A stretch of DNA of 64,000 nt from an uncultured Verrucomicrobiaceae bacterium. GTDB lineage: Bacteria > Pseudomonadota > Gammaproteobacteria > Pseudomonadales > CAMLJR01. Below, in pieces: positions 45,079-64,000 of the stretch. The stretch covers positions 18,731 to 82,730 of the forward strand of contig CAZEVP010000003.1 in assembly GCA_964515735.1 (NCBI GenBank), in the 5' to 3' direction. The first letter of the stretch is position 1, and each line of letters starts with the position of its first letter. Both the position numbers and the translations under genes were made by a program. A model generated the notes under the pieces. It was given only the letters and a program-made list of their open reading frames with translations. It had not been told where the DNA came from and did no database searches.

Positions 45079-45369
45079 ATGACGACCGGAGAACGGGAGC
45101 CGCCCATGGAGCGGGAGACATTGATACGGGCGCTGAAGGCGATGATCGTCGCCGAGTGCGACAAGGAGATCGAACCGGACGAGATCGGCGACGACGAGAC
45201 GCTGATCGGCGGCCCGCTCGCGCTCGATTCGCTCGACGCGCTGCAGATCTGCATGGCGGTCAAGAACCGCTGGGGCGTGCGCATCGAGAGCGGGCCGTCG
45301 GCGCGGCGCGCGCTGCAGAGCGTCGCCACGCTGGCCGACACCATCCTCACCGCCGGGCACGACGCCTAG
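45079..45369 (+). CDS. Acyl carrier protein 1
   Basis: Phosphopantetheine site GGPLALDSLDALQI. The true start may be ATG 45106 (MERETLI). Confidence 0.8.
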   Translation: MTTGEREPPMERETLIRALKAMIVAECDKEIEPDEIGDDETLIGGPLALDSLDALQICMAVKNRWGVRIESGPSARRALQSVATLADTILTAGHDA

Positions 45370-46526
45370 TGTTCGGGCGCGTCCACATCCGCGGCGCCGG
45401 CCTGCACACCGCGCTCGGCGCCGCGCTGCCCGAACAGATCGCGGCACTGCGCCGGCCGCTGGCGCCGGTCGAGCGCGCCGAGGTCGTCTACGCCGATCAG
45501 TGCGAGCGCGTGCCATACCGGCTGCTGGCCGGCCTGCCGCTGCGCGCGCCGGCCGAACGCCTCGAACAGGCACTTCATGGCGCGATCGGCGCCGCGCTCG
45601 ACACGGCCGGCCTCGATGCCGCCCAGCGGCGCCGGCTCGGCCTGTTCGTCGGCACCTCGTCGTTCGACATTTCGGTGTCGGAAGCGCAGTTTCGCGACGA
45701 ACTGCAATGCGACGGCGACGGCGCGATACCGCTGTCGCGCTCCAGCAGCCTCGGCAACCTCGCCGTCGCGCTGCGCCGGCGGTGGGATCTGCGCGGCCCC
45801 GACTTCTCCCTCAACACCGCCTGCACCGCCAGCGCCAACGCGCTGCTGTACGCGGCGCGGATGATCGAGCACGGCGAGCTGGAATCCGCGCTGGTGGTCG
45901 GCCTCGAACTGTGCAACACCGTCACCGCGATGGGCTTCCACGGCCTCGACCTGCTGGCGTCGAACGGCATGCGCCCGTTCGACACCGGGCGCGACGGGCT
46001 GGTGCCGGGCGAGGCGGTCGGCGCGCTGGTGCTGAGCGCGCGGCCCGGGCGTGCAACGTTCCGGCTGCGCGGCGGTGCCACGCTGTGCGACACCCACAGC
46101 ATCTCCGCCGCCAACCCCGACGGCTCGACCGTGGCCGAGGTGATGCGCGCGGCGCTGGCCGACGCCGGCCTCGAACGCGACGACATCGCCGCGCTGAAGA
46201 CGCACGGCACCGCCAGCCTGCTCAACGACGAGGCCGAGGTGGCCGGCATGAAACGGCTGTGGGGCGACGCGCTGCCGCCGCTGTGCGCGCTGAAGCCGTT
46301 CATCGGCCACACCTTCGGCGCCTGCGGCCTCGCCGAGCTGCTGCTGTTCTGCGGCGCCGCCGAACAGGGCTTCCTGCCGCCGCTGCCGGGTATCTGTGCC
46401 GAGCCATCCGACCTCGGCATCCGCCTCGCGCAGGCGCCAACCTCGCAGCCGCCCGGCCACTTCCTGCTGAACTACTTCGGCTTCGGCGGCAACAACACCT
46501 CGCTGGTGGTCGGCAATGTCGACTGA
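45369..46526 (+). CDS. Beta-ketoacyl-ACP synthase (FabB/F-like, APE elongation KS type)
   Basis: GTG start overlapping the ACP stop (TAGTG). Cys-His-His triad contexts NTACTASANAL, KTHGTASLLND, IGHTFGACG. Confidence 0.85.
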   Translation: MFGRVHIRGAGLHTALGAALPEQIAALRRPLAPVERAEVVYADQCERVPYRLLAGLPLRAPAERLEQALHGAIGAALDTAGLDAAQRRRLGLFVGTSSFDISVSEAQFRDELQCDGDGAIPLSRSSSLGNLAVALRRRWDLRGPDFSLNTACTASANALLYAARMIEHGELESALVVGLELCNTVTAMGFHGLDLLASNGMRPFDTGRDGLVPGEAVGALVLSARPGRATFRLRGGATLCDTHSISAANPDGSTVAEVMRAALADAGLERDDIAALKTHGTASLLNDEAEVAGMKRLWGDALPPLCALKPFIGHTFGACGLAELLLFCGAAEQGFLPPLPGICAEPSDLGIRLAQAPTSQPPGHFLLNYFGFGGNNTSLVVGNVD

Positions 46527-47412
46527 CGCGATCGCGATCCGCGGCAGCGGCGACTACTGCGCGGCGGTCGATGCCGACGTGCCGGAATTGAAGGCGCTGG
46601 TGCGCGAGACGCTCGGCGAGCCGGTGCGGCGCATCGGCCGCTTCATCCAGCTGGCGCTGATCGGCGCCGGCCGCTGCGTCGGCGGTGAAACGCTGGCGCC
46701 GGCCACCGCGGTCTACCTGAGCTCCGGCCGCGGCGACCTGGAGATCACCATCGAGGTGATGGAGACGCTGTTCCGCGCCGGCCATTCGCCGATGCCACTG
46801 AGCTTCATCAACACCGTCAGCAACTCGGCCTGCTACTACATCGCGCGCCAGTTCGGCCTGCACGGCCGCTCCAACTTCATCTGCAACCGCCACTTCGCGT
46901 TCGAGAGCGCGCTGCAGCTGGCGCTGCTCGACCTGCGCGCCGGGCTGGTCGACTCGGCGCTGGTCGGCAGCGTCGACGTCGCTGTGGCGCCGCTGCGCGA
47001 CCACCGCCGCCGGCTCGAACTCGCCGCCGATGCCGCGCTGGCGGAGGGCAGCCACTGGCTGTGGCTGCAGCACGCGCCGGCCGGCGACGGCGCGCCGCAA
47101 CTGCTCGACGCACGCCAGTTCGCCGACCGCGCCGACCTCGATGCGTGGCTGCGCACGCTGTCGCCACAACGCACGGCGATCGCGCTGGCCAGCGGGCAGT
47201 TCCTGCCGACGGCCATCGCTGACGACATCGCCGAGGCGCACGGCTTCGACGCGCACTTCGATTACCGCAGCGGGCGCGGCTACTACGACAGCCAGAGCGG
47301 CGCCGTGCTCGGTGCATTCCTGCACCGCGCCGATCCTCGGCCGCTGCTGCTGCACCTGAACGCCGATCCGGACGGCCGCTTCAGCGCGATGCTGGTGCGC
47401 GCACCGCGCTGA
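46516..47412 (+). CDS. Ketosynthase-like partner lacking the canonical active-site motif (chain-length-factor-like)
   Basis: 11-bp overlap with the KS gene. Thiolase-like segments (FINTVSNSACYYIARQFGLHG) without DTACSS- or HGTG-type motifs. Confidence 0.7.
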   Translation: MSTDAIAIRGSGDYCAAVDADVPELKALVRETLGEPVRRIGRFIQLALIGAGRCVGGETLAPATAVYLSSGRGDLEITIEVMETLFRAGHSPMPLSFINTVSNSACYYIARQFGLHGRSNFICNRHFAFESALQLALLDLRAGLVDSALVGSVDVAVAPLRDHRRRLELAADAALAEGSHWLWLQHAPAGDGAPQLLDARQFADRADLDAWLRTLSPQRTAIALASGQFLPTAIADDIAEAHGFDAHFDYRSGRGYYDSQSGAVLGAFLHRADPRPLLLHLNADPDGRFSAMLVRAPR

Positions 47413-47496: not shown

Positions 47497-48654
47497 GTGG
47501 TTGAATGGCTCCATCCCCGGAAGAGAGCCAGACCCGTGCCGTCGACCGTACCGAACCGAGGCGTCAGCGCCATTTCGTCCGTCCTGCCGACGCTGCTGCT
47601 GGGCGCGCTGCTTCTGCTGCAGGCCGGCTGCCAGCTGCAGCCGCCCGAGCCGGAAGTACCCGCACTGCCACCACCGGCGGCGACCCACAGCTTCACGCTG
47701 GCGCCCGGTGGCGACGTCGTCGGCGAGGTACAGCGCGTGCAGGCCTACTACGAGGACACCTTTTCCGACCTCGCCCGCCGCTTCAACCTCGGCTACGAGG
47801 AGCTGGTGCGTGCCAACCCCGGCGTCGACCCGTGGCTGCCGCGCGAGGGCACCGAGATCGTGCTGCCGACCCGCTTCGTGCTGCCGGACGTGCCGCGCGA
47901 GGGGGTCGTCATCAACCTCGCCGCGCTGCGCCTCTATTACTTCCCGAAGGCGGCGCCCGGCGAGCCGCAGCGCGTCGTCACCCACCCGATCGGCATCGGC
48001 CGCGTCGGCTGGCGCACGCCGGAAGGCAGCACGAAGGTGACGAGGAAGCAGAAGGACCCGCCGTGGTTCCCGCCGGCGTCAGTGCGGCGCGAGCACGCCG
48101 CCAACGGCGACCCGCTGCCGGCGCGGGTCGAGCCGGGCCCGGACAACCCGCTCGGCCGCCACGTGCTGCGGCTCGGCTGGCCGAGCTACCTGATCCACGG
48201 CACCAACAACCCCTACGCCGTCGGCCTGCGCGCCAGCCACGGCTGCGTGCGCCTCTACCCCGAGGACATCGAGCTGCTGCACGACGAGATCCCGGTCGGC
48301 ACCAAAGTGACGGTGGTCAACCAGCCGGTGGTCTACGGCTGGGATGGCGACACGCTCTACCAGCAGGCCTACCCGGCGCTGGAGGACGACAAGCGCAATC
48401 AGACGCAGCTGGAGAAAAAGGCGCTGGAGGCGGCGCGCAAGCGGGCGCCGGCGGGTATGCGGGTCGACGGCGACAGCGCTTCACGCCTGCTGGCCGAGCG
48501 GCGCGGCATCGCGCTGCCGGTGGCGGCTCAGACCGAACCACAAGCCGTCGTGGCCAACGCCCCGCAAGTCGAGAACCGGCTGCCGGCCGGTGCGACCTGG
48601 AACGGCAGTGATCCGCAGCTGGCAGCGGGGGACAGTACCGTGACAGTGCCATGA
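47497..48654 (+). CDS. Lipoprotein L,D-transpeptidase (YkuD domain) with LysM-like segment
   Basis: Lipobox LLLLQAGC. LysM-like TFSDLARRFNLGYEELVRANP. YkuD catalytic motif YLIHGTNNPYAVGLRASHGCVRL. The ORF-track start is GTG; the true start is uncertain. Confidence 0.85.
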   Translation: MVEWLHPRKRARPVPSTVPNRGVSAISSVLPTLLLGALLLLQAGCQLQPPEPEVPALPPPAATHSFTLAPGGDVVGEVQRVQAYYEDTFSDLARRFNLGYEELVRANPGVDPWLPREGTEIVLPTRFVLPDVPREGVVINLAALRLYYFPKAAPGEPQRVVTHPIGIGRVGWRTPEGSTKVTRKQKDPPWFPPASVRREHAANGDPLPARVEPGPDNPLGRHVLRLGWPSYLIHGTNNPYAVGLRASHGCVRLYPEDIELLHDEIPVGTKVTVVNQPVVYGWDGDTLYQQAYPALEDDKRNQTQLEKKALEAARKRAPAGMRVDGDSASRLLAERRGIALPVAAQTEPQAVVANAPQVENRLPAGATWNGSDPQLAAGDSTVTVP

Positions 48655-48744: not shown

Positions 48745-49062
48745 ATGCCTGAAATCCATGAAACCGCCACGCTGACGTCCAAGGGCCAGATCACGCTGCC
48801 CAAGTCCATCCGGCAGGTGTTGGGCGTGGACACTGGCGGCAAGGTAGCCTTCGATCTGCGTGGAGGCGAGGTCGTCGTGACGCGTGCCGACGCCGGGCAT
48901 GAAGACCCGGCCATCGGCGCCTTTCTGGGTCTGCTGGAGGCGGACATCCGCGCCGGCCGGCATGTCCGGTCCCTGCCGGAGGATCTCGCCCACGCCATGC
49001 TGGCACGTGCCGGTCAGGCGGTGGACCTGGATGAAGATATTGATGGCGAAGTAGCGATCTGA
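48745..49062 (+). CDS. prlF: AbrB/SpoVT-fold antitoxin, PrlF(SohA)-like
   Basis: ATLTSKGQITLPKSIRQVLGV (SpoVT-AbrB swapped hairpin). Acidic C-terminus. Stop overlaps the toxin ATG (TGATG). Confidence 0.8.
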   Translation: MPEIHETATLTSKGQITLPKSIRQVLGVDTGGKVAFDLRGGEVVVTRADAGHEDPAIGAFLGLLEADIRAGRHVRSLPEDLAHAMLARAGQAVDLDEDIDGEVAI

Positions 49063-49544
49063 TGCAGAGACATGGATGGACACTGCTGTTTCACGAGGGC
49101 GTGATCGAGCAGCTGCGCAAGCTGCAAACGGCTGCGGAACGGGCCGAACAGAACGACCCGCAAGGCTTCGAGAGCAACGCCAACGTCAAGCTGTTCCGGG
49201 CGCTGAGCCAGTTGATCATGGAGGTCGTGCCGAGCGCCCCCTCGCGCGACGAGTTTCGTCAGGGCAATACCTTGAGGCCGGCGTTCCGCCACTGGCGGCG
49301 CGCGAAGATTGGACGGCGATTTCGCCTGTTCTTTCGCTACGACGCCAAAGCCAGAGTGATCGTGTACGCGTGGGTCAATGACGAACAGACCCTGCGGTCG
49401 GCAGGCAGCAAGTCCGATCCCTACGCGGTGTTCGAGAGGATGCTCGGTCGTGGCACTCCGCCTGATGATTGGGCGGCGCTGGTAACGGCGAGCCAAGCGG
49501 ATTGGCGCGCAACGGAGAAACGCTCATCACCCGGTAGTGGCTGA
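49062..49544 (+). CDS. yhaV: YhaV-family type II toxin (ribonuclease)
   Basis: GWTLLFHEGVIEQL…FRQGNTLRPAFRHWRRAKIGRRFRLFFRYDAKARVIVYAWVNDEQTLRSAGSKSDPYAVFERML matches the YhaV pattern. Confidence 0.85.
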   Translation: MQRHGWTLLFHEGVIEQLRKLQTAAERAEQNDPQGFESNANVKLFRALSQLIMEVVPSAPSRDEFRQGNTLRPAFRHWRRAKIGRRFRLFFRYDAKARVIVYAWVNDEQTLRSAGSKSDPYAVFERMLGRGTPPDDWAALVTASQADWRATEKRSSPGSG

Positions 49545-49600: not shown

Positions 49601-50590
49601 CTACACAAACCCCTTCAACAACCCCCACACCGCCGCCTCGCGGTCGGCGCAGCGATTGAGAATCGCCGCCAGCTCATCGACGTCGAGTGCGCTGCGGCCG
49701 CGCGCCATCTTGCTGGCGCGCAGCGCGAACAGCCGCCACTCGTCGCCGGCCTCAGTCAGATCGAGCGCTGCCTGCTTCAGCAGGTCGCTGTCGCACAGCT
49801 TCGCCGCCTCCTGCAGGAACGATGCGTAGATGAAACGGAAACCGGCACCGCCGGTGCCGATCTCCTCCTGCATCCGCACGATGTGGGCGAGATAGAGATT
49901 CAGGTGCTCGCGGTCGGCGCCGGGGCGGCCGAGCCTGACGATGCACTTCGCCAGATGGCGGATTCCGCGAATGCCGATCACCGGCAGCGGCGCCTGATTC
50001 ATGATGCGGTGGTTGGCCTTCAGCGCGGCGCGGATCGCCGGGCGCAGGTCGACGTCGGTCGGCACTCGCGTCGGGCGGTACAGCAGCCCGCGCGCCGCCA
50101 GCGCGCCGCGCGCGAAACGCGCCTTGCGCAGATCGGTTGCCGCACAGCGTGCCGTGGTCTCGAACACCGGGTCGGAGATCAGGTAGTCGTCGCCGTCGCG
50201 GCCGTAGACGATCAGGTTGTGCGCGTTGAAGTGGAAGCGCATCTGTTCGGGAAAGTACGGCAGCCAGAACACGCTGGTCTGCAGCCCGGCGATCTGGCCG
50301 CTGTCGAGCAGCGCGTCGAGTTCGCGCATGCCGCGACCGGCGTCGCGGTAGGTGGCGCGCTGCATCGTCACGCCGAGCCGCTGCGCGACGCCCTTGATGA
50401 TGCGGCCGGGCGGCATCCGGTAGGCGATCAGCGGCATCCCGGACAGCTTCACCAGCGGGATGTAGGCGAAGGTCAGCGCGTTGGCGAGGCCGAACGCCAT
50501 CGGCTCGCTGAGCGGCAGGCCGTGGTGGGTGAGCAGGTTCGACACCACGCCGCTTTCGCAGTGGGCCGACTGGCGGTGCTGGTAGTCCAT
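49601..50590 (-). CDS. BtrH_N/DUF4872-type protein (butirosin BtrH-like ACP-dependent transferase fold)
   Basis: N-terminus SAHCESGVVSNLLTHHGLPLSEPMAFGLANALTFAY is the BtrH_N pattern with a catalytic-type Cys. Last gene of the minus-strand dar operon (4-bp gap to the upstream gene). Confidence 0.7.
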   Translation of the reverse strand: MDYQHRQSAHCESGVVSNLLTHHGLPLSEPMAFGLANALTFAYIPLVKLSGMPLIAYRMPPGRIIKGVAQRLGVTMQRATYRDAGRGMRELDALLDSGQIAGLQTSVFWLPYFPEQMRFHFNAHNLIVYGRDGDDYLISDPVFETTARCAATDLRKARFARGALAARGLLYRPTRVPTDVDLRPAIRAALKANHRIMNQAPLPVIGIRGIRHLAKCIVRLGRPGADREHLNLYLAHIVRMQEEIGTGGAGFRFIYASFLQEAAKLCDSDLLKQAALDLTEAGDEWRLFALRASKMARGRSALDVDELAAILNRCADREAAVWGLLKGFV

Positions 50591-50594: not shown

Positions 50595-51008
50595 TCAGAT
50601 CGTCTCGGAAGAGTCCGGCAGCGACTGCAGCTCGGCGACGCTCAGGCCGAGCGCCTCGGCGTAGCGAGCCAGCAGCCGCGGCGACAGCCGGGCGAAGCGG
50701 CGCGGGTCGAAGTGGCGGCGGATGCGCCACTGCCACAGGCCGCTGGTCTGCGCCAGCAGCGCCAGATCCATGCGGCGGCGGTACATGTGGAATTCGAGCG
50801 GCGCGGTGTCACCGCGCCGGGCGCGCGCCCAAGCGTCGTCGCGCTGGCGGTTGACGGCATCGATCGCCGCCTGTGTCGCCGCGGTCTCGACCTCCCAGCC
50901 GGCGGAGTGGACGCCGCCGTAGTCGCCGCGCTCGTCGACGGCGTAGAACAGCTTGCGCTGACCGCCGTAGTTGGGCGACGGATCCTGCGGCACCTCCTCC
51001 TTTTTCAT
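50595..51008 (-). CDS. 137-aa protein of unknown function with possible C-terminal HTH
   Basis: Lies 4 bp after the darB stop and 4 bp before the BtrH-like ATG. C-terminal MDLALLAQTSGL…LLARYAEALGLSVAELQ looks XRE-HTH-like. N-terminal half is unrecognised. Confidence 0.5.
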   Translation of the reverse strand: MKKEEVPQDPSPNYGGQRKLFYAVDERGDYGGVHSAGWEVETAATQAAIDAVNRQRDDAWARARRGDTAPLEFHMYRRRMDLALLAQTSGLWQWRIRRHFDPRRFARLSPRLLARYAEALGLSVAELQSLPDSSETI

Positions 51009-51012: not shown

Positions 51013-53244
51013 TCAGACAGCCGTCAGCTGCAGCAGCGCGGCCGAGAAGCGGCCGCTCTCCGGCACCCAGCACAGCAGCCGCTGGCCGCGCTCGATGCGG
51101 CCGCTGCGGCGCAGTTCGTCGAGGATGATGTAGATCGATGCGGCGCCGGTGTTGCCGCGCTCGGTCAGATTGGTGAACCAGCGCGATTGCGGAATCTCGA
51201 ATTCCGCATTGCGCAGGCCGTCGAGCACGCGGTCGCGGAAGTAGTTCGACGAGTAGTGCGGCAGGAACCAGTCGATGTCGCTGGCCCGCAGGCCGCGCTT
51301 CTGTTGCAGCACGCGCAGCGGTTTCTCGACCGTGTAATGCACGATGTGATCGTTCAGCAGCTTCACGTCCTGCTTGACCGCCAGCACCGACACCGCGTTG
51401 CGCTGTTCGGGGTCGAGCATGGCCCAGCCGGTCAGCGTGCCGTCGTCGTTCTTGACGGCGCCGGCGTACATGCAGGCTTCCATCTCGCCGGCATACGAGA
51501 AGATGTCGATCCAGTCGATGCGCAGGTTGAGCTGGCCCGGCTTCGGCTCGGGCCGCAGCAACGCGGCGCCGGCGCCGTCGGAGAGCATCCAGCGCAGGAA
51601 ATCCTTCTCGAATGCCAGCTCGGGTCGTTTCTCCAGGACATCGGCGTCGGCTTCGAACGCCGCCACCGCTTCGCCCTGATAGTTGCGTGCGCACAACATC
51701 GACGACGACAGCTCGGAGCCGGTGGCGATGGCACTGTCGTGCTGGCCCGAGGCCACCGCCATCCAGCCGTACTTCAGCGCGCTGACACCGCTGACGCAGA
51801 CGCCGCCGGTGGCGACCGTCTCCAGCACCGGCAGCTTCAGTTCGCCCTGCACCATCACCGCATGGTTCGGCATCAGCTGGTCCGGAATCGACGTGCCGCA
51901 GCCGAGGCAGCCGAGCTGGCTCAGGTCGAAATCGGCATCGCTGGCGAGCCTGCGCACCGCCGCCGCCGTCAGCGAGGCGTTGCTGTGGGTGGCGGCGCCG
52001 GTGCGCGGATCGATCGCGTAGTGACGGCTGCGGATGCCGTTGCTGCGCAGGATGGTGCGGCGCGCGCGCGACGGCCGCTCGCCGACCTGGCCGAGCACCT
52101 GCTCCATGCGGTCGTTGTCGACCGGCTCGTTCGGCAGGAAGGCGGCGGTGTCGGTGATGTAGACGCTACGGCTCATGCGGGGCGGTCTGCTCTGGCGATG
52201 TCTGTGAAAACGGTCGATGAAAATAGTCGGTAAAAGAGCGCAACGACGGCTCAGGCCGCGCCGGCCGCATCGGGCCGCATCGGGCCGCTGCAGCGGCAGC
52301 GGCTCGGGCGCGCGCTCCTCGCCGGACGGCGCCGCGAAATAGGCGCGCTGACGCGCGATGCGCGCGCGCGTCAGCGGTGCCAGCAGCCGCTTGATGACGG
52401 CGCTGAGCGGCACCACGGTCAGGATCAGCGTCACCAGGAACACGACGTAGAACACCAGCACCGCGCGCCGCAGCGGCGTGCCCGGCTTGCCGAGCGCGCG
52501 CAGCAGGCCGCCCCAGATGCGGAAGCTGCGGCGCGCGATCGTCTCCGAGGCGATCAACCGCTCGTTGATCGTCACCGCGCCGAGGCCGCGCAGCATCGGC
52601 GAGTCGTCGGCGGCATCGCGCTGCGGCAGCTGCGCGGCGATGGCGCGACCGAAACGGGCGGCATCGTCGATGTCGGCGCGGGTCACGCCGGCCTCCGGAA
52701 TCAGCCCGCCGAGCAGCGCGTTGCTCTTGCCGGTCAGCATCCAGCGCGGCGTCGAGATGAAGGTGAAGGCGCTGTGGCAGCTGTCGGTCAGCACGACGTT
52801 GTCGACCAGCCGCGCGCCGAGGCGTTGCAGGTGCTCCTTGACGATCTCCTGCGCCATCAGCCACATGTTGCGGCAGCCGATCAGCGTGATCACCGGCTTG
52901 CCGCGCAGCAGCCTCAAAGCCTGTTCGCTCTGCAGGAACGCCGTGGTCGGCAGCGATGGCGACAGGAACCAGACCTGGTAGGCGAGGATGACCAGATCGA
53001 ATTCAGCGTCGTCGGCGATGTCGAGCGGTTCGATCGGCGCGCTCTCGGTGTCGCCGTAAACCGTCTCCGGGAAGGTGTCGAAGAAGCGCCAGAACGGCCA
53101 CGGAAACGGGAACGGCCGGCGCGGGCGGACTACCGCCGTCGTCAGCGCGATGTCCGGGCTGGCCGCCAGCGGCGCGCAGACCGACCGCACGATCTCGCCG
53201 AGCTGGCCCGATTGCGAAAAATGGATGACGAGAACTCGTTTCAT
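51013..53244 (-). CDS. darAB: DarA-DarB fused reading frame (flavodoxin-like DarA module + KAS III-like dialkylresorcinol condensing enzyme DarB)
   Basis: DarA part is MKRVLVIHFSQSGQLGEIV… DarB part starts at internal ATG 52176 (MSRSVYITDTAAFLPNEPV) with Cys-His-Asn contexts GGVCVSG, LPHYSS, RGNTGAAS. There is no stop between them in this sequence. Confidence 0.75.
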   Translation of the reverse strand: MKRVLVIHFSQSGQLGEIVRSVCAPLAASPDIALTTAVVRPRRPFPFPWPFWRFFDTFPETVYGDTESAPIEPLDIADDAEFDLVILAYQVWFLSPSLPTTAFLQSEQALRLLRGKPVITLIGCRNMWLMAQEIVKEHLQRLGARLVDNVVLTDSCHSAFTFISTPRWMLTGKSNALLGGLIPEAGVTRADIDDAARFGRAIAAQLPQRDAADDSPMLRGLGAVTINERLIASETIARRSFRIWGGLLRALGKPGTPLRRAVLVFYVVFLVTLILTVVPLSAVIKRLLAPLTRARIARQRAYFAAPSGEERAPEPLPLQRPDAARCGRRGLSRRCALLPTIFIDRFHRHRQSRPPRMSRSVYITDTAAFLPNEPVDNDRMEQVLGQVGERPSRARRTILRSNGIRSRHYAIDPRTGAATHSNASLTAAAVRRLASDADFDLSQLGCLGCGTSIPDQLMPNHAVMVQGELKLPVLETVATGGVCVSGVSALKYGWMAVASGQHDSAIATGSELSSSMLCARNYQGEAVAAFEADADVLEKRPELAFEKDFLRWMLSDGAGAALLRPEPKPGQLNLRIDWIDIFSYAGEMEACMYAGAVKNDDGTLTGWAMLDPEQRNAVSVLAVKQDVKLLNDHIVHYTVEKPLRVLQQKRGLRASDIDWFLPHYSSNYFRDRVLDGLRNAEFEIPQSRWFTNLTERGNTGAASIYIILDELRRSGRIERGQRLLCWVPESGRFSAALLQLTAV
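52263..52288. repeat. 10-bp unit GGCCGCATCG in 2.6 tandem copies at the darA/darB junction
   Basis: 52263-52272 and 52273-52282 are identical, followed by the partial copy GGCCGC. Deleting one unit restores an in-frame TGA (TCA at 52251-52253) for darA. Confidence 0.9.
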
Positions 53245-53623: not shown

Positions 53624-53700
53624 CGGCGGCTCCTCGGCGGGCGGCCATTATAAGGAAGCGCGGCGCTGCTAGAATCCGCCACCTCGCCACCGGAGCCGCC
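53624..53700. promoter_or_regulatory. Divergent promoter region of the pigment cluster
   Basis: 77-bp spacer between divergent dehydratase genes. TGCTAGAAT extended -10-like element at 53667-53675 (+) with TTATAA about 16 bp upstream. Confidence 0.3.
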
Positions 53701-56232: not shown

Positions 56233-56252
56233 CAGTGACGGAAGAGAGCCCC

Positions 56253-56509: not shown

Positions 56510-57091
56510 ATGAGCCGACTCGGCCGCCTCGGCGCACCGCTGCTCGGCGCGCTGCTGCTGCTCTACCCCGCCGCGGTCTTCTACGGCCTGCAGCACGGTT
56601 CGGCGCGTCTGGTCGGGCTGCTGCTCGGCGCCGCCGTGGTCGCGCGCTGGTGGCTGCTGCGCGGCCGGCCGGTGGCCGGGCTGACGCCGGTGCTGCTGGC
56701 CGGGCTCGGCTGCGCGCTGGCGGCATCGATCGCCGACAGCGGCATCGCGCTGCGGCTGCTGCCGGTGCTGGTCTCGCTGATCATGCTGGCGACGTTCGGC
56801 TACACGCTGTGGCGGCCGCCGAGCATGGTCGAACGCTTCGCGCGCGCCATCGAGCGCGACGAACTGCCGCCGCAGGCGATCGCCTACACGCGCCGCGTCA
56901 CCCAGGTCTGGTGCCTGTTCTTCATCGTCAACGGGGCGATCGCGCTCTACACCGCGCTGTTCGCCCCGCTCGCGCTGTGGACGCTCTACAACGGCCTGAT
57001 CTCGTACCTGCTGATGGGGCTGCTGTTCGCCGGCGAGTGGCTGGTGCGCCGGCGCTTCCAGCGGCGGCTGCGCGGGGAGATCGCACCATGA
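56510..57091 (+). CDS. Integral membrane protein of APE-type clusters (COG4648-like)
   Basis: Five to six TM segments. Conserved-looking MVERFARAIERDELPPQAIAYTRRVTQVWCLFFIVNG. Confidence 0.65.
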   Translation: MSRLGRLGAPLLGALLLLYPAAVFYGLQHGSARLVGLLLGAAVVARWWLLRGRPVAGLTPVLLAGLGCALAASIADSGIALRLLPVLVSLIMLATFGYTLWRPPSMVERFARAIERDELPPQAIAYTRRVTQVWCLFFIVNGAIALYTALFAPLALWTLYNGLISYLLMGLLFAGEWLVRRRFQRRLRGEIAP

Positions 57092-58821
57092 CGGCGACGC
57101 TCGCCACGCTGCTGGCCAGCGCGCGTGCCGACGACCATCCGGTCGCGCTGCGCCCCCACCCGGCCCTGCCGGAAAAAGAGCCGCAGTCGCTGTACTGGCG
57201 CGACCTGCGCGCCGCCGTCGCCGCCACGATCGACGCCTTAAAAGAACAGCCCGGCGGCCGCTGGGCGCTGTACGACAGCGACACCTTCCGCTTCGCCGCC
57301 GGCCTGCTGGCACTGCTGCACAGCGGCCGCACACCGCTGCTGCCCGGCAACGCGCAGCCCGGCACGCTGCGCGAACTGGCGCCGCAGGTGCAGGGTTTTC
57401 TCGGCGAGCTGCACGGCGTCGATGCCATCGCCATCGGCGACGGCGGCGATGCGAATGACACCAGCGCCGCGCTGCCCGCGATCGCCGCCGACGCGACGAT
57501 CGAGCTGATGACCTCCGGCTCGACCGGCGACGCCAAACGCATCGTCAAGCGACTGGCGCAACTCGACACCGAGGTCGCCTGCCATCTGCACGCGTGGCGC
57601 GACCTCATCGACGAACGCACGCTGTTCGTCGCCAGCGTCAGCCACCAGCACATCTACGGCCTGCTGTTCCGGCTGCTGCTGCCGCTGCTGCGCGGCGCGC
57701 CGTTCACGACCCAAACCTTCGACTACAACGAATCGCTCTACGCCAGCGCCGCTGCCAGCGACAGGGCAGTCGTCGTCACCAGCCCGGCGCATCTGACGCG
57801 GCTGCCGCCGGCGCTCGACGGCGACGCGGTGCGGCCGCGACTGGCGCTGCTGCTGTCATCGGGCGGGCCGCTGCCGGCCGCCGCCGCGCGGCAGGCACTG
57901 GCGCTGTTCGGGCAGGTGCCGCTGGAGATCTTCGGTTCCACCGAAACCGGCGGCATCGCCTGTCGTCGCCAGAACGAAAACGACCGCTGGCAGCCACTGC
58001 CCGGCGTCGACATCGGGATCGACGACGACGGCCTGCTGCTGGTGCGCTCGGCGTGGGCCGACGGCGGCGAGCAACGCACCGCCGACCGCGCACGGCGCGA
58101 CGATGACGGTCGCTTCGCGCTGCTCGGCCGCGCCGACACCGTGGTCAAGATCGAAGAGAAGCGACTCAGCCTCGACGAGATGAACCGGCGCCTGCGCGAA
58201 CACCCGCTGGTGGTCGATGCGCGCGCCGTGCTGCTGCCGGAGCGGCGGCGGCTCGGCGCCGTCGTCGCGCTCACCGATGCCGGCCGCGCGCGGGCGCAGC
58301 GCGATCGCGCCGCCGTGATCGCCGACCTGCGCGACCATCTCGGCCAGTTCTTCGAACGCACGCTGCTGCCGCGCAAATGGCGACTGCCCGACGCGCTGCC
58401 GCAGGATGCGCAGGGCAAGGTGACGCTGCGCGCGCTGCAGGCACTGTTCGCCCCGTCACCCACGGAGCCGCCCGGCGAGCTGCTGAGCCGCGACGAGAAC
58501 AGCTGCGACATCGCCATCGACCTGCGCCGCTGCGCGCAGGTGTTCGACGGCCACTTCCCGGGGCTGCCGGTACTGCCCGGCGTCTACCAGCTCGACTGGG
58601 CGATACGCCACGCGCGCCGCCACCTGCTGCCGCCGTCGCTGCGCTTCGTCGCCGTCGACCAGCTGAAATTCTCCGAGGCGATCGCGCCCGACCTGCCGCT
58701 GACGCTGCGGCTGACCCGCAGCGGCGAGCGTGTCGAATTCGCCTACCGCTGCGGCGCGCTGCCGCTCTCCAGCGGCCGCATCCAGTTCGCGGCCGACGAC
58801 GACGGGGAGACGGCAGCGTGA
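57088..58821 (+). CDS. AMP-dependent (adenylate-forming) ligase fused to a C-terminal hot-dog domain
   Basis: ATGA overlap. MTSGSTGDAKRI (AMP-binding P-loop), GSTETGGIA. C-terminal FDGHFPGLPVLPGVYQLDW dehydratase-like module. Confidence 0.85.
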   Translation: MTATLATLLASARADDHPVALRPHPALPEKEPQSLYWRDLRAAVAATIDALKEQPGGRWALYDSDTFRFAAGLLALLHSGRTPLLPGNAQPGTLRELAPQVQGFLGELHGVDAIAIGDGGDANDTSAALPAIAADATIELMTSGSTGDAKRIVKRLAQLDTEVACHLHAWRDLIDERTLFVASVSHQHIYGLLFRLLLPLLRGAPFTTQTFDYNESLYASAAASDRAVVVTSPAHLTRLPPALDGDAVRPRLALLLSSGGPLPAAAARQALALFGQVPLEIFGSTETGGIACRRQNENDRWQPLPGVDIGIDDDGLLLVRSAWADGGEQRTADRARRDDDGRFALLGRADTVVKIEEKRLSLDEMNRRLREHPLVVDARAVLLPERRRLGAVVALTDAGRARAQRDRAAVIADLRDHLGQFFERTLLPRKWRLPDALPQDAQGKVTLRALQALFAPSPTEPPGELLSRDENSCDIAIDLRRCAQVFDGHFPGLPVLPGVYQLDWAIRHARRHLLPPSLRFVAVDQLKFSEAIAPDLPLTLRLTRSGERVEFAYRCGALPLSSGRIQFAADDDGETAA

Positions 58822-60524
58822 CGACCGCCTTCAACCCCTGCCTGCTGATCCCCTGCTACAACCACGGCCGCCAGATCGGCGCCACGGTTTCTGCGTTAGA
58901 GCCGCTGTGCCTGCCGTGCCTGCTGGTCGACGACGGCAGCGACGCCGACACCGCGCGCGAACTCGACCGGCTGGCCGCGCAACACGACTGGCTGACGCTG
59001 GCGCGGCTGCCGGCCAATCGCGGCAAGGGCGTGGCGGTGACGCACGGCATCGAGCTGGCGGCGGCGCGCGGCCACACACACGCGCTGCAGATCGACGCCG
59101 ACGGCCAGCACGACACCCTCGACGTGCCGGCGCTGCTGGCGCTGGCGCGCGACAACCCCGACGCGCTGGTCAGCGGCTGGCCGCAATACGGCGACGACAT
59201 GCCGGCCTCGCGCCGCTACGGCCGTCAGATCACCCACTTCTGGGTCTGGATCGAGACGCTGTCGTTGTCGATCCGCGATTCGATGTGCGGCTTTCGCGTC
59301 TACCCGGTGGCGGCGACGCGCGCGCTGCTGACACGGCGCGCACTCGGCGAGCGCATGGATTTCGACACCGAGGTGATGGTGCGGCTCTACTGGGATGGCG
59401 TGCCGGTGCTGTTCCACCCGACCCGCGTGCGCTACCCCGACGACGGCCAGTCGCACTTCCGGCTGTGGCGCGACAACCTGCGCATCAGCTGGATGCACAC
59501 GCGGCTGGTGTGCGAAATGCCGCTGCACCTGCCACGGCTTCTCGGCGCCAGAGCAGATTCTTCACGCACGGCAGACCGGGCGTGGGCGCAGCACGCGGAA
59601 CGCGGCGCGCAGTGGGGCCTGCGCGCCTGCCTGTACTGCTTCCGCCTGCTCGGCCGGCGCGGCCTCGGCCTGCTGCTCTACCCGGTGATCGCCTATTTCT
59701 TCGTCGCCAATCGCGACGCTCGCGCCGCTTCGCGCGACTACCAGCAGCGGTTGCACCGGCTCGGCGTGTTGCCGTTGCCGCCGGACAACCGCTCGATCTA
59801 CCGCCACTTCCTCGCCTTCGGCAGCGCGCTGGCCGACCGGCTGGCATCGTGGGCCGGCGCGGTGAACCGCGACCAGCTGACCTTCCACAATTACGAGGCG
59901 TTCCAGCGTCAGGTCGACAGCGGCCACGGCGCCATCATCTTCTCCGGCCATATCGGCAACATCGAGCTGACGCGCTCGCTGCTGCGGCAGAGCCCGAATG
60001 CGCATGTGAAGGTCAACGTGCTGGTGTTCACGCGCCACGCCGAGCGCTTCAACCAGCTGATGCGCGACGTCAACCCGGATGCCGGCATGGAGTTGATCCA
60101 GGTCGACGAACTGAACCCGGCATCGGCGCTGGTGCTGCAGCAAAAAATCGAAGCCGGCGAATGGCTGGTGGTCGCCATCGACCGCCCCTCGCCGAATGCA
60201 CCCGAGCGTGTCGTCGCCGTGCCGTTTCTCGGCGATCCGGCGCCGTTCCCGCAGGGAGCCTTCATCCTGGCGGCACTGCTGCGCTGCCCGGTGCTGCTGC
60301 TGTTCTGCCTGCGTGAAGCCGACGGTTATCACGTGTATGTCGAAGCCTTCGCCGACCGCATCGAGCTGCCACGCAAACAGCGCGAAGTCGCACTCGCCGC
60401 CTACGCGCAGCGATTCGCCGGCTCGCTGGAACAAATGGTGCGGCGCGCACCACTGCAGTGGTTCAACTTTTTCGACTTCTGGCGCCTGCCAGCCACCGAC
60501 TCATCGACCAAGAAATCGCAATGA
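58818..60524 (+). CDS. GT2 glycosyltransferase fused to LpxL/HtrB-like acyltransferase domain
   Basis: GTGA overlap. PCYNHG…LLVDDGSDADT…QIDADGQH (GT-A DxD). Central TM region. C-terminal lipid-A-acyltransferase-like half. Confidence 0.8.
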   Translation: MTTAFNPCLLIPCYNHGRQIGATVSALEPLCLPCLLVDDGSDADTARELDRLAAQHDWLTLARLPANRGKGVAVTHGIELAAARGHTHALQIDADGQHDTLDVPALLALARDNPDALVSGWPQYGDDMPASRRYGRQITHFWVWIETLSLSIRDSMCGFRVYPVAATRALLTRRALGERMDFDTEVMVRLYWDGVPVLFHPTRVRYPDDGQSHFRLWRDNLRISWMHTRLVCEMPLHLPRLLGARADSSRTADRAWAQHAERGAQWGLRACLYCFRLLGRRGLGLLLYPVIAYFFVANRDARAASRDYQQRLHRLGVLPLPPDNRSIYRHFLAFGSALADRLASWAGAVNRDQLTFHNYEAFQRQVDSGHGAIIFSGHIGNIELTRSLLRQSPNAHVKVNVLVFTRHAERFNQLMRDVNPDAGMELIQVDELNPASALVLQQKIEAGEWLVVAIDRPSPNAPERVVAVPFLGDPAPFPQGAFILAALLRCPVLLLFCLREADGYHVYVEAFADRIELPRKQREVALAAYAQRFAGSLEQMVRRAPLQWFNFFDFWRLPATDSSTKKSQ

Positions 60525-62053
60525 CAACCGACAGTGTCATCTTCGGCGACGGCCGCCTGACCATCGAACAGATCGGCGCCATCGCCCGCGGCGAAGCGCA
60601 GGCGCAACTGAGCGGCAGCGACCGCTTCCGCGCCCGCATCGAACGCGGCGCCGCCTTCCTCGATTCGCTGCTGGCCGAGCGCGGCGTCATCTACGGCGTC
60701 ACCACCGGCTACGGCGACTCCTGCACGGTGGCGGTGCCGCCGGAGCTGGTCGAGGAACTGCCGCTGCACCTGACCCGCTTCCACGGCTGCGGCCTCGGCG
60801 ACGTGTTCGAGCCGGTGCAGGGCCGCGCGATCCTGGCGACGCGCCTCGCGTCGCTGGCGCAGGGCTGCTCCGGCGTGCGCTGGGCGCTGTTGCAACAGCT
60901 CGAAACCTTCCTGCGCGAGGACATCGTGCCGGTGATTCCGCAGGAGGGCTCGGTCGGTGCCAGCGGCGACCTGACGCCGCTCTCCTACGTCGCCGCCGCG
61001 CTGATCGGCGAGCGCGAGGTATGGCACGCCGGCGAGCGCCGCAACACCGTCGACGTGCTGCGCGAACAGGCGATCGCGCCGCTGGCGCTGCGGCCGAAGG
61101 AGGCGCTGGCGATCATGAACGGCACCGCCGTGATGACCGCACTGGCCTGCCTCGCGTTCGAGCGCGCCGACTACCTGATGCGACTGGCGACGCGCATCAC
61201 CGCGATGAACTCGGTGGCGCTGGCCGGCAACGCCAGCCATTTCGACGAGCGCCTGTTCGCGGTGAAACCGCACGCCGGTCAGCAGCGCATCGCCGCCTGG
61301 CTGCGCGCCGACCTCGAACAGCACGACGCGCCGCGCGAGGGCACGCGGCTGCAGGACCGCTACTCGATCCGCTGCGCGCCGCACGTCGTCGGCGTGCTGG
61401 CCGACTCGCTGCCATGGCTGCGCCAGTTCATCGAGAACGAACTGAACAGCGCCAACGACAACCCGATCATCGACGGCGACGGCGAACACGTGCTGCACGG
61501 CGGCCACTTCTACGGCGGCCACATCGCCTTCGCGATGGACAGCCTGAAGAACATGGTGGCGAACATCGCCGACCTGCTCGACCGCCAGCTGGCGCTGCTG
61601 GTCGACGAGAAGTTCAACTGCGGCCTGCCACGCAACCTCAGCGGCGCCAGCGGCGCGCGCGCGCCGATCAACCACGGCTTCAAGGCAGTGCAGATCGGCA
61701 CCAGCGCGTGGACCGCAGAGGCGCTGAAGCTGACGATGCCGGCCAGCGTCTTCTCGCGCTCGACCGAGTGCCACAACCAGGACAAGGTCAGCATGGGCAC
61801 CATCGCCGCGCGCGACTGCCTGCGCGTGCTGCAGCTGACCGAACAGGTGGCGGCGGCGCTGCTGCTGGCAGCGACACAGGCGCTGGAACTGCGCGCACGC
61901 CGCGACGGCACCGCGCTGACGCCGGCGCTGGCCGACATGAGGGCGCAGGTGTTCACGCAGTTCGATTTCGTCGACGAGGACCGGCCGCTGGAAGCGACGC
62001 TGCGCCAGTTCGTCGCGGCGATCCAGCAGCGGCAGTGGACGCTGTACGACTAG
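60521..62053 (+). CDS. MIO-dependent aromatic amino acid ammonia-lyase (HAL/PAL/TAL family)
   Basis: ATGA overlap. GSVGASGDLTPLS (Ala-Ser-Gly MIO triad), YGVTTGYG, NDNPI. Substrate is not assignable by eye. Confidence 0.9.
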   Translation: MTTDSVIFGDGRLTIEQIGAIARGEAQAQLSGSDRFRARIERGAAFLDSLLAERGVIYGVTTGYGDSCTVAVPPELVEELPLHLTRFHGCGLGDVFEPVQGRAILATRLASLAQGCSGVRWALLQQLETFLREDIVPVIPQEGSVGASGDLTPLSYVAAALIGEREVWHAGERRNTVDVLREQAIAPLALRPKEALAIMNGTAVMTALACLAFERADYLMRLATRITAMNSVALAGNASHFDERLFAVKPHAGQQRIAAWLRADLEQHDAPREGTRLQDRYSIRCAPHVVGVLADSLPWLRQFIENELNSANDNPIIDGDGEHVLHGGHFYGGHIAFAMDSLKNMVANIADLLDRQLALLVDEKFNCGLPRNLSGASGARAPINHGFKAVQIGTSAWTAEALKLTMPASVFSRSTECHNQDKVSMGTIAARDCLRVLQLTEQVAAALLLAATQALELRARRDGTALTPALADMRAQVFTQFDFVDEDRPLEATLRQFVAAIQQRQWTLYD

Positions 62054-62069
62054 GAACGCGGAAAAACCG

Positions 62070-62501
62070 ATGGACAAAGACCAGAAACTGAGCGCCGACG
62101 TACTGATCCAGATTCCGTTCCACGACTGCGACATGATGCGCATCGTCTGGCACGGCCATTACACGAAGTACTTCGAGATCGCGCGCTGCGCGCTGTTCGA
62201 CCTGATCGACTACAACTACGCCACGATGGAAGCGTCGGGCTATGCGTGGCCGATCGTCGAGTGCCAGCTGAAATACATCCGCCCTGCCCACTTCGGCTCG
62301 CGCGTGCGCGTGCGCGCGACGCTGACCGAGTACCAGAACCGCCTCGGCGTCGACTACCTGATCACCGACGACGCCAGCGGCGAGCGGCTGACCAAGGGAC
62401 GCAGCCTGCAGGTCGCGGTCGACATGAAGAACGGCGAGCTGCAGTTCGCCACACCGCCGATCCTGACGGAGAAGATCGAATGCGCGCTGCGCCGGCTCTG
62501 A
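62070..62501 (+). CDS. 4HBT/YbgC-type acyl-(CoA/ACP) thioesterase
   Basis: IPFHDCDMMRIVWHGHYTKYFE (hot-dog thioesterase with catalytic Asp context). Confidence 0.85.
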   Translation: MDKDQKLSADVLIQIPFHDCDMMRIVWHGHYTKYFEIARCALFDLIDYNYATMEASGYAWPIVECQLKYIRPAHFGSRVRVRATLTEYQNRLGVDYLITDDASGERLTKGRSLQVAVDMKNGELQFATPPILTEKIECALRRL

Positions 62502-63181
62502 TCGCACTCGCCGTTCTGCTGGCGCTGGCCGCACCCGGCCACACTGCCACTGCCGATGGCGACGACGCACTGTGGCGACAACCACCGGCCTCGCTCGACG
62601 ACCCGCTGCTGCGCGCGATCGGCGCACGGCTGGCGCAGGATGAAACGCTGGCGCGCCGCTTCGAACAACAGAAACAACTGAAGATATTGCAGCGACCGCT
62701 GCGCACCTCCGGCGTCATGCTCTATCGCGCCGGCCTCGGCGTCTGCTGGCATACCGAAACGCCGGTAGTCAGCACGCTGGTACTGGAACCGGAACGGCTG
62801 CGCCAGCTCGGTGACGGCGCGCACGGCGACGCCGACGAACTGGTCATCGGCGCCGCCGAACAACCGGCGCTGTTCGGCTTCACGCAGCTGTTCTTCTCGC
62901 TGCTGGCCGGCCGTGTCGACACTGCCACCGATCAGTTCGAACTGCGCGTCGCAGGCGATGCCGCCGACTGGCGCATCGGCCTGCTGCCGCGCAGCGCGCT
63001 GCTGCGCCGTTTCATCGCGCGGATGCAGCTCGACGGCGGCGAACAGGTCGACGCCGTGACCGTCACCGATCCCGAGGGCGACCGCACGCTGATCCATTTC
63101 GCGCCGCTCGATGTTGCCGACCCGACACTGGAGCAGCGCTGCTTCGGCGCACCGTCGTCGCAGGAACCGGCGCATGGTTGA
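62480..63181 (+). CDS. LolA-like outer-membrane lipoprotein-carrier-fold protein
   Basis: 22-bp overlap with the thioesterase gene. Signal peptide ALIALAVLLALAAPGHTA. F.Q.K…L..PL..SG pattern (FEQQKQLKILQRPLRTSG). Confidence 0.7.
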   Translation: MRAAPALIALAVLLALAAPGHTATADGDDALWRQPPASLDDPLLRAIGARLAQDETLARRFEQQKQLKILQRPLRTSGVMLYRAGLGVCWHTETPVVSTLVLEPERLRQLGDGAHGDADELVIGAAEQPALFGFTQLFFSLLAGRVDTATDQFELRVAGDAADWRIGLLPRSALLRRFIARMQLDGGEQVDAVTVTDPEGDRTLIHFAPLDVADPTLEQRCFGAPSSQEPAHG

Positions 63182-64000
63182 CTGGCTGGTCGCGCGGCTG
63201 CTGGTGACGCCGCGGCGCGGGCTGCAGCTGTGCGCGCTGATGGCGGCGCTGATCGCGCTCGCCTTCGCCGTCAGCTTCTGGCGCGGCGCGCAGATCGAAA
63301 CCAACGTCATGGCGTTGCTGCCACCGACCGAACGCGACCCGGTGGTCGCCGCCGCCGTGCAGCGCTTCGACGAACAGCTGGCGCGGCGCCATCTGCTGCT
63401 GGTCGGCGCCGCCGATTTCGATGCCGCGCGCGCCGGCGCCGAGCGGCTGGCCGGCCTGCTGTGCGACAGCGAGCAGTTCGCCGAGGTGACGCTGCGCGTC
63501 GCCGGCGACACCAATACCACCGCGCGCCTCTACGGCGACCATCGCGCGCAGCTGCTGACGCCGGCGCTGCGCGACGCGCTCGCCGAGGGCGGCGCCGATG
63601 CGGCGGTCGAGCACGCGCTGCGGCTGCTCTACAACCCGGCGGCACCGATCAACTCGGCGCTGCTGGCGCACGATCCACTGTTGCTGTTCTACGACTTCGT
63701 CGCCAGTCAGCGCGGCGGCAACGGCGCGCTCGAACTGCGCGACGGCCTGCTGACGGCGCGGCACGACGGCCTGCACTACGTGCTGCTGCAACTGCAGCTG
63801 AACGGCGACCCGTTCTCAATCGAACTGCAGCAGCGCGTGGTGCCGGCACTGGATCGCGTGCTGGCACAACTGCAACAGGAACAGCCGGCGCTGCGGCTGC
63901 TCGACATCGGCGCCGTGCGCTACGCCCGCGCCGGCGTCGAGGCGGCACAGCGCGAGGTGTCGACGATCGGCACGCTGTCGCTGATCGGCATCATCGCCAT
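63174..64000 (+). CDS. MMPL/RND-like exporter, 5' part (runs off the window)
   Basis: Not in the ORF track because no stop lies inside the window. Hand translation from ATG 63174: MVDWLVARLLVTPRRGLQLCALMAALIALAF…ETNVMALLP…GVEAAQREVSTIGTLSLIGIIA. 8-bp overlap with the LolA-like gene. Confidence 0.75.
   Translation, partial: MVDWLVARLLVTPRRGLQLCALMAALIALAFAVSFWRGAQIETNVMALLPPTERDPVVAAAVQRFDEQLARRHLLLVGAADFDAARAGAERLAGLLCDSEQFAEVTLRVAGDTNTTARLYGDHRAQLLTPALRDALAEGGADAAVEHALRLLYNPAAPINSALLAHDPLLLFYDFVASQRGGNGALELRDGLLTARHDGLHYVLLQLQLNGDPFSIELQQRVVPALDRVLAQLQQEQPALRLLDIGAVRYARAGVEAAQREVSTIGTLSLIGIIA

Follow-up and report, generated by a model that had tools for sequence, protein, structure and literature searches.

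What does a bacterium make from a locus in which aryl polyene (APE) genes and dialkylresorcinol (DAR) genes lie side by side, and how would the two parts of such a product be joined? Pigments of the aryl-polyene and flexirubin types shield Gram-negative bacteria from oxidative stress and influence their biofilms, and a yellow-orange membrane pigment is the product type of such clusters. The DNA analysed here, referred to as the window (positions 1-64000), is a 64,000-nucleotide stretch of contig CAZEVP010000003.1, assigned to an uncultured Verrucomicrobiaceae bacterium. The cluster section was reviewed from 41984 to the window end and onward along L001, a metagenome contig found via its LolA-like protein, which is 100 % identical to window 61799-64000 and 6 kb longer. 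These genes very probably constitute a single biosynthetic gene cluster for a pigment of the APE-DAR type, ~28 kb in length, which runs from 41984 past 64000 to at least window-equivalent position 69974. A cluster of this type had been proposed for 45079-64000 by a reader of the sequence alone (the original prediction), and that overall interpretation is supported.

GC content in the cluster region is ~69-73 % (~70 %), which gives rise to a crowded list of false open reading frames (ORFs), and the real genes were picked by their third-position GC (GC3) bias; the genes listed below separate from spurious ORFs by this measure, yielding a clean map. An independent gene caller, run on other assemblies of the same DNA, gave the identical gene set, with five starts slightly shorter. 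Every gene named in the original prediction was found at its place by the GC3 map and family searches, and the gene content, family membership, gene order and conservation described here are read directly from these data.

The polyene half and its starter unit

The polyene genes occupy the third of the three blocks originally delimited (54334 to the window end), all on the plus strand:

54334..55059, plus strand: ApeC-like chain-length factor, Ketoacyl-synt_2 family (PF13723, 214.6 bits)
55056..55979, plus strand: ApeD-like lysophospholipid acyltransferase of PlsC type (PF01553, 73 bits)
55972..56232, plus strand: acyl carrier protein ACP2 at the ApeE position, LDSIDAL (PP-binding, 35.6 bits; PRK09184, 85.9 bits, cut-off 70)
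56235..56501, plus strand: acyl carrier protein ACP3 at the ApeF position, LDSIDAI (PP-binding, 44.4 bits; PRK05350, 112.7 bits, cut-off 65)
56510..57091, plus strand: membrane protein at the ApeG position (no Pfam match; conserved position and homologues in APE-bearing loci)
57088..58821, plus strand: ApeH-like adenylating enzyme fused to an ApeI-like dehydratase (AMP-binding and PF22818)
58818..60524, plus strand: ApeJ-like family 2 glycosyltransferase (GT2)/LpxL-type acyltransferase (PF00535 and PF03279)
60521..62053, plus strand: aromatic amino-acid ammonia-lyase of the 4-methylideneimidazol-5-one (MIO) type, probably a tyrosine ammonia-lyase (PF00221, 538 bits; ASG motif)
62070..62501, plus strand: ApeK-like 4HBT thioesterase (4HBT_2, 52 bits)
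62480..63181, plus strand: ApeL-like LolA-type carrier (weak LolA and LolA_3 matches; LolA2_flexi, 41 bits, below cut-off)
63174..64000, plus strand: ApeM-like MMPL/RND exporter, cut by the window end (PF03176 on the full 807-aa protein in L001)

The ketosynthase-N-terminal-like protein noticed originally is the Ketoacyl-synt_2 factor at the head of this list. The junction overlaps that had been taken as signs of translational coupling are real, with ATGA at 55056, 57088 and 60521, GTGA at 58818, and longer overlaps of 8 nt at 55972, 22 nt at 62480 and 8 nt at 63174.

Past the window, L001 carries in order the MMPL gene (807 aa), a flavin halogenase, a DUF3261 gene, a second ketosynthase (KS2), an ApeP-like dehydratase (65.6 bits) and a ketoreductase (KR), and ends 79 nt past the KR gene; both the KR and the DUF3261 gene, which had been expected beyond 64000, are therefore present. 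KS2 is ApeO-like (529 bits on PRK09185, cut-off 407) and KR is of the FabG2 type (408 bits on TIGR01831, cut-off 339). The halogenase, which lies outside the window, scores 88 bits on Trp_halogenase and retains the GxGxxG motif as GAGPSG at 20, WxWxIP as WFWLIP at 224 and FxxPxxSxG as FLDPVFSSG at 307.

Together, this block and L001 are colinear with the ape cluster of Escherichia coli CFT073, whose order is apeC, D, E, F, G, H/I, J, K, L, M, N, O, P, Q (Table 1, PMC8253772), with just two extra genes, the lyase flanked by J and K and the halogenase flanked by M and N. The set comprises a ketosynthase with its Ketoacyl-synt_2 factor, tandem ACPs, a synthetase, ApeI- and ApeP-like dehydratases and the FabG2-type KR, and the attachment and export genes (PlsC, GT/LpxL, thioesterase, LolA-like, MMPL and DUF3261) also stand in ape order.

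The lyase suggests how the polyene is primed. Its best match in the PDB is the tyrosine ammonia-lyase (TAL) of R. sphaeroides (RsTAL), followed by tyrosine aminomutases, with histidine ammonia-lyases (HALs) scoring lower, and it carries the NQD motif of Tyr/Phe enzymes. At the selectivity switch it has Phe-His, compared with His89-Leu90 in RsTAL; relatives linked to similar clusters have F/Y-H or F-C at these positions and the Mucilaginibacter lyase has S-H. Since FlxA, a proven TAL, has a HAL-like switch motif (PMC3992019), the motif cannot settle the substrate of the lyase, and a prediction from the switch was rejected as unreliable. Judged by homology, tyrosine is the most likely substrate. 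The best NCBIfam match of the AMP-ligase is the 4-coumarate-CoA ligase model TIGR02372 (101 bits, below cut-off), and the starter is probably 4-coumarate rather than 4-hydroxybenzoate.

A pathway of the xanthomonadin or arcuflavin type would instead draw a 3- or 4-hydroxybenzoate starter from chorismate via a XanB2-type enzyme. It would account for the flavin halogenase, as found with brominated xanthomonadins, and for lipid and export genes, which are common to all these clusters. However, a scan of the genes from 41984 through L001 turned up no chorismatase or XanB2-like protein, an aromatic ammonia-lyase lies within the operon instead, and the genes are ordered as in E. coli ape and not as in the Xanthomonas pig cluster, so this pathway is highly improbable.

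The resorcinol half

The remaining cluster genes in the window are as follows:

41984..42910, plus strand: SAM-dependent methyltransferase (Methyltransf_25/11)
42917..43891, plus strand: ABC transporter ATPase, DarF-like in the Azoarcus naming (ABC_tran, 105 bits; DrrA subfamily, 236 bits)
43888..45072, plus strand: ABC-2 permease, DarI-like (ABC2_membrane_3, 114 bits)
45079..45369, plus strand: acyl carrier protein ACP1, DarC-like, DSL site in LDSLDAL (PP-binding, 18.7 bits, cut-off 20.8; PRK09184, 39 bits, also below cut-off)
45369..46526, plus strand: ketosynthase KS1, DarJ-like (Ketoacyl-synt N and C domains; Cys152-His279-His314)
46516..47412, plus strand: KS1p, inactive ketosynthase partner, DarK-like and chain-length-factor-like (weak ketoacyl-synt match; His126 at the Cys position)
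49601..50590, minus strand: DarH, BtrH-like acyltransferase and candidate esterifying enzyme (NF053550, 479 bits, cut-off 300; BtrH_N and DUF4872)
50595..51008, minus strand: DarG-family protein with a predicted C-terminal XRE/Cro-type five-helix domain (NF053536, 170 bits, cut-off 70)
51013..53244, minus strand: DarA-DarB as a single 743-aa ORF (DarA 52318-53244, 48-aa linker 52174-52317, DarB 51013-52173)
52268..52287, minus strand: 10-nt tandem duplication, CGGCCCGATG x2, in the DarA-DarB linker, abolishing the DarA stop
53327..53623, minus strand: HDi, ApeI-like hot-dog dehydratase subunit and first gene of the dar operon (paralogue of the AMP-ligase C-terminal domain)
53698..54135, plus strand: HDp, ApeP-like hot-dog dehydratase subunit, divergent from HDi (hhalign 98.5 %, E 3.7e-15; conserved P-H motif)

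The gene caller places the start of ACP1 at 45106. As originally described, the window holds three ACPs with DSL or DSI serines, of which ACP2 and ACP3 lie above the Pfam and NCBIfam cut-offs and ACP1 below them.

To place these genes, 80 genome loci were fetched with up to 10 kb of flank on each side, and the window proteins were mapped onto them by tblastn. DarA, DarB, DarG and DarH (DarABGH) occur together in 74 of the 80 loci, an ABC ATPase next to the dar genes in 58, KS1 in 55, the ABC-2 permease and ACP1 in 53 each, KS1p in 39, HDi in 33 and HDp in 29, some of the last with no APE genes detected in the fetched flank. The accessory genes accompany the dar core with or without nearby APE genes and in both relative orientations. 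Because the ABC-2 transporter, the ACP and the ketosynthase with its inactive partner usually adjoin the DarABGH core, the first block belongs to the resorcinol half and not to the polyene half; the original prediction had rightly placed the ACP, ketosynthase and partner in the cluster.

The Cys-His-His ketosynthase and its overlapping partner are as first reported. Cys152, His279 and His314 of KS1 align with the catalytic residues of Thermus thermophilus FabF (1J3N) and are conserved in >=90 % of 45 homologues. KS1p, which overlaps KS1 by 11 nt, matches only the N-terminal half of a ketosynthase, and the position of its His126, that of the catalytic Cys, varies between Y, H, D and C among 27 homologues, as expected for a non-catalytic partner. 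Assignment of these genes to housekeeping fatty-acid synthesis, named at the outset as the case that would overturn the prediction, is refuted by the family searches: KS, ACP, KR and dehydratases are indeed like those of fatty-acid synthesis in fold, but KS1 and KS2 score far under the FabF and FabB equivalog cut-offs, and the set includes a Ketoacyl-synt_2 factor, an inactive ketosynthase partner, DarB, DarG, DarH, a lyase and a halogenase.

Several genes of the dar side have counterparts on the polyene side. KS1 shares 35 % identity with the ApeO-like KS2, KS1p shows a faint similarity to the ApeC-like protein (E 0.004), and HDi is paralogous to the ApeI-like domain of the AMP-ligase (blastp 1.7e-7). 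In a Pfam hmmscan of HDi and HDp the ApeI-like and ApeP-like families were not reached even at E = 1, HDi finding only FabA (E 0.003), and precomputed Pfam annotations are ApeI-like for HDi and ApeP-like for HDp; the assignments were settled by the blastp match for HDi and by hhalign for HDp. Furthermore, DarA is fused to an ApeI-like hot-dog domain in protein P0008 and to a short-chain dehydrogenase/reductase (SDR) in P0009, fusions that tie DarA to a dehydratase and a reductase of its own. From this paralogy and these DarA fusions, the dar module would appear to have its own small type II synthase.

The darA and darB genes were predicted on the opposite strand and are present there, although as one ORF, and DarG and DarH beside them had gone unrecognised. 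The DarB part (aa 384-766 of the long ORF) matches StlD/DarB NF005293 with 570 bits (cut-off 450), and the narrower resorcinol_DarB model reaches 464 bits, below its cut-off of 550. The N-terminal 312 aa of the long ORF match no Pfam or NCBIfam model; in all 80 loci, Bacteroidota included, the gene upstream of darB is a homologue (34-89 %) of the DarA part. Profile searches of the kind proposed originally thus matched Ketoacyl-synt_2, DarH, the DarG family, StlD/DarB and MMPL, with a weak LolA-like match.

The same 743-aa ORF is found in two further assemblies from other sequencing runs. In the nearest relative of the cluster, locus L033 (contig CAYLRA010000029.1, ~90 % protein identity), darA ends in an ATGA overlap with darB and the 137-nt segment found here is missing. 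This segment contains the perfect 10-nt tandem duplication, and with one copy deleted in silico, DarA stops at a TGA after 327 aa and a spacer of 74 nt (55 % GC) follows. As removal of the copy restores the stop, the fusion seems to stem from a recent frameshift read-through. Six of the 80 loci (Stutzerimonas, Pseudomonas, Arcobacter) carry settled DarAB fusions, in frame and with short linkers, and by analogy with these the fused enzyme is likely to work. A homologue search with the fused ORF returned no full-length fusion among the 12 matches listed. P0005, considered as a partial DarA-DarB fusion, was discarded, its source assembly (L007) being full of split genes.

One further feature of DarA is a single 24-residue hydrophobic helix at residues ~250-275 (window 52400-52500), flanked on either side by positive charges and lying immediately ahead of the DarB junction. 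If membrane-spanning, it would put the fused DarB on the wrong side, and it may be a monotopic anchor instead.

In DarH, His10-Cys11-Glu12, His120, His124 and Asp140 are invariant in 70 of 70 homologues. These residues fit a papain-like acyl-enzyme transferase such as BtrH, and DarH is the best candidate in the cluster for the ester-forming enzyme. Searches of PDB sequences with DarH and, as a profile, DarG gave nothing usable. DarG, which carries the NCBIfam label 'biosynthesis protein', has no Pfam match itself, HTH_26 being weakly touched by two of 22 homologues. Its AlphaFold model (AF2, 50 homologues; pLDDT confidence score >94 for residues 50-130) consists of a long helix followed by a five-helix bundle, which superposes on ClgR, C.AhdI, 434 Cro and SinR at a root-mean-square deviation of 1.4-2.8 A, with Foldseek E-values of only 0.02-0.15. 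Because these E-values are weak despite the tight superpositions, the helix-turn-helix reading stays tentative; the model suggests that DarG, instead of being an enzyme, may serve as a small regulator or adaptor of the XRE type.

Proposed product and the joining of the two halves

The cluster is likely to yield an aryl polyene primed by 4-coumarate, halogenated and possibly methylated, in ester linkage with a dialkylresorcinol. The ester link, the substrates and the individual roles of the dar accessory genes are what we infer from the homologies above, the polyene steps being modelled on characterised E. coli and Xenorhabdus homologues. The ammonia-lyase would convert tyrosine to 4-coumarate, which the ApeH-like enzyme would adenylate and load onto ACP2 or ACP3. 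The ApeO-like ketosynthase with its ApeC-like factor, the FabG2-type KR and the ApeI- and ApeP-like dehydratases would then build the polyene chain, and the flavin halogenase and methyltransferase would decorate the ring. On the resorcinol side, KS1 and KS1p with ACP1, HDi and HDp would act as a paralogous small type II synthase supplying beta-ketoacyl and 2-enoyl thioesters, which DarB would condense to a cyclohexanedione for aromatisation by DarA, in keeping with the cyclase and aromatase roles of these enzymes (PMC3949708). DarH, as a BtrH-like Cys-His acyltransferase, would most likely shift the polyene acyl group from its ACP to a resorcinol hydroxyl, and PlsC, GT2/LpxL, the LolA-like carrier, MMPL, DUF3261 and the ABC-2 transporter would serve membrane anchoring and export to the outer membrane.

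That a second type II synthase, complete in itself, makes up the resorcinol half, that DarH makes the ester and that DarG is a helix-turn-helix regulator or scaffold and not an enzyme is, taken jointly, a tentative proposal, with a somewhat better chance of being wrong in some part than right in all. On this proposal, the DarA-DarB read-through would be a recent fusion caught early, paralleling the settled ones in Stutzerimonas, Pseudomonas and Arcobacter.

Alternatively, two independent pathways could lie side by side, one making an APE-lipid for the outer membrane and the other free dialkylresorcinols, as antioxidant or signal, exported by their own ABC-2 transporter and without any ester. 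Most of the 80 loci have DarABGH with ABC, ACP and ketosynthase genes and no APE genes detected in the fetched flanks, the dar side here has its own transporter, and the APE block retains the full attachment and export set that E. coli uses without DAR. Against this, lineages far apart have the two halves side by side in the same relative arrangement (L010, L028, L033 and L085, as well as L038-L044 from Neisseria and Kingella). Halioxenophilus sp. WMMB6 (L010) carries the LolA-like gene, APE genes, HDp/HDi, DarABGH, KS1p, KS1, ACP1, ABC genes and methyltransferase as one contiguous run, and this layout largely recurs in Rheinheimera maricola (L028) and L033. Flexirubin clusters with lipid and export genes still make APE-DAR esters (PMC3992019), the unlinked arc and dar loci of Azoarcus still yield the hybrid arcuflavin (PMC3949708), and an acyltransferase-type DarH has no obvious role in making a free resorcinol. 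Two separate pathways are therefore unlikely.

A number of points weigh against the esterified, 4-coumarate-primed product. DarABGH is found in many genomes with no APE genes detected within the flanks of up to 10 kb per side, and the lipid-anchoring genes PlsC and GT2/LpxL are retained here, as in APE-lipid clusters without DAR. An ApeR-type initiating ketosynthase is absent from the genes covered, L001 stopping before that point, and the DarA-DarB read-through could impair the enzymes. As for the starter, the residue of the lyase that corresponds to RsTAL His89 is Phe and not His, the flexirubin FlxA model gives it 329 bits, far under the cut-off of 700, and by its sequence phenylalanine, which would yield cinnamate, is a possible substrate.

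Cluster limits, neighbours and related systems

The left border of the cluster, judged from conserved gene neighbourhood, is the methyltransferase at 41984 and not 45079, as this gene is kept beside the ABC ATPase in L010 and L008 (61-62 % identical) and has a 53 % identical homologue in L052. The range first given, 45079-64000, thus left out three upstream cluster genes, the methyltransferase and the two ABC-2 transporter genes (41984-45072), and took in three unrelated genes (47497-49544):

47497..48654, plus strand: L,D-transpeptidase with YkuD and LysM domains (Pfam), an inserted gene outside the pathway
48745..49544, plus strand: PrlF-YhaV type II toxin-antitoxin pair, likewise inserted and outside the pathway (PrlF_antitoxin, 56 bits; Toxin_YhaV, 184 bits)

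In L010, 11 nt separate the convergent DarH and KS1p genes; the transpeptidase is absent between them there and in L011, L063, L068 and L081, and present in L033, where the gap holds the transpeptidase and an SDR gene but no toxin-antitoxin pair. PrlF and YhaV have no match in any of the other 80 genome loci. Since the layout of L010 and L028 lacks these genes and L033 lacks the toxin-antitoxin pair, comparison of the loci marks the transpeptidase and PrlF/YhaV as insertions at a convergent junction, outside the pathway. The three-block cluster described originally is accordingly real, but consists of two operon groups split by inserted genes. Promoter-like sites lie at 48679-48717, just ahead of prlF; for the cluster itself a promoter and terminator scan gave nothing convincing, and Rfam and tRNA scans of the window gave no match. 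A toxin-antitoxin pair also occurs in the dar cluster of Azoarcus BH72 (PilT/Phd), and the junction seems insertion-prone.

Upstream of the cluster lie hemC, hemD and hemY, the methyltransferase start overlapping the hemY stop. The chromosomal neighbours in the window are recG, spoT, yicC, argB, an algC-like gene, coaBC, radC, argH, a LytS/LytTR pair and hemCDXY, an order (recG, spoT, argB, coaBC, hemCDXY and others) that we take to resemble Pseudomonas-like gammaproteobacteria. L033 is labelled 'uncultured Verrucomicrobiaceae'; given the gammaproteobacterial-looking neighbourhood of the window, the bin may be mislabelled, or a transfer may have brought in the cluster.

Elsewhere in the window, two Xre/ParS-type antitoxin and RES-domain toxin pairs (Pfam) lie at 1644-2800 (plus strand) and 6751-7845 (minus strand), in and beside a stretch of lower GC (0.62-0.64 at 2-6 kb) with SDR, thioredoxin-like and Ada-like AraC/methyltransferase genes. 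The ORF at 27689-30223 encodes a phosphomannomutase/phosphoglucomutase (PGM/PMM) of 844 aa whose four PGM/PMM domains start only at residue 394, pointing to either a long N-terminal extension or an over-called start.

The ape clusters of E. coli CFT073 and Xenorhabdus doucetiae share apeC-apeQ with this locus in the same order, and overlapping reading frames are common to both. Here, by contrast, ApeH and ApeI are fused, the lyase and halogenase are intercalated, apeA and apeB are missing from the head, the methyltransferase stands at the outer end of the dar half, the locus includes a complete dar module and the starter is probably 4-coumarate in place of 4-hydroxybenzoate. With the flexirubin clusters of Bacteroidota (Chitinophaga pinensis, Flavobacterium johnsoniae), the locus has in common a lyase-primed polyene, DarABGH, an ABC transporter and an ACP, and the Mucilaginibacter locus L082 has the same dar core together with a lyase. 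The layout had been called flexirubin-type, and DarH does pass NF053550; besides FlxA and resorcinol DarB, however, the flexirubin DarG (129.6 bits, cut-off 170), FlxB (286.5, cut-off 340) and LolA2 (41.2, cut-off 125) models fall below their cut-offs, the polyene half is in proteobacterial ape order and the lyase switch is F-H compared with S-H. The cluster appears to work in the manner of a flexirubin pathway, yet by these profile scores it is no set of equivalogs to the Bacteroidota one.

The dar locus of Azoarcus sp. BH72 is made of the same parts, namely darA, darB, a hypothetical gene, a BtrH-like gene, an ABC ATPase and permease, the ACP gene darC, the ketosynthase gene darJ and the hypothetical gene darK, and this strain makes the polyene-DAR hybrid arcuflavin (PMC3949708). 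Unlike at the present locus, its polyene genes are of the xanthomonadin type with a XanB2 chorismatase, lie in two unlinked loci and include no ammonia-lyase. In the APE-DAR clusters V1-V3 of marine Pseudomonadaceae, E. coli/V. fischeri-type APE genes are physically joined to DAR genes in a gammaproteobacterium (PMC10165715); the bacterium here is uncultured and its DNA has ~70 % GC. These hybrid clusters are predictions given without product chemistry, and the same paper distinguishes four classes of APE pigments, the APE-DAR hybrids flexirubin and arcuflavin among them (PMC10165715). Hybrid APE-DAR clusters have already been described (flexirubin, arcuflavin, marine Pseudomonadaceae), and the locus is a further example. 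For Variovorax paradoxus B4, too, Schoner et al. (2016) reportedly characterised the structure of a hybrid APE/DAR pigment.

On its own the locus adds little, beyond an annotation with corrected cluster borders, three inserted genes flagged and the fused DarA-DarB flagged. More useful is the 80-genome comparison, which defines a conserved dar module consisting of DarABGH, the ABC-2 transporter, an ACP, a ketosynthase with its inactive partner and a dehydratase pair. The comparison also yields testable roles for DarH, DarG and the ketosynthase pair; this accessory module and these proposed roles are the only parts of the analysis that could lead further.

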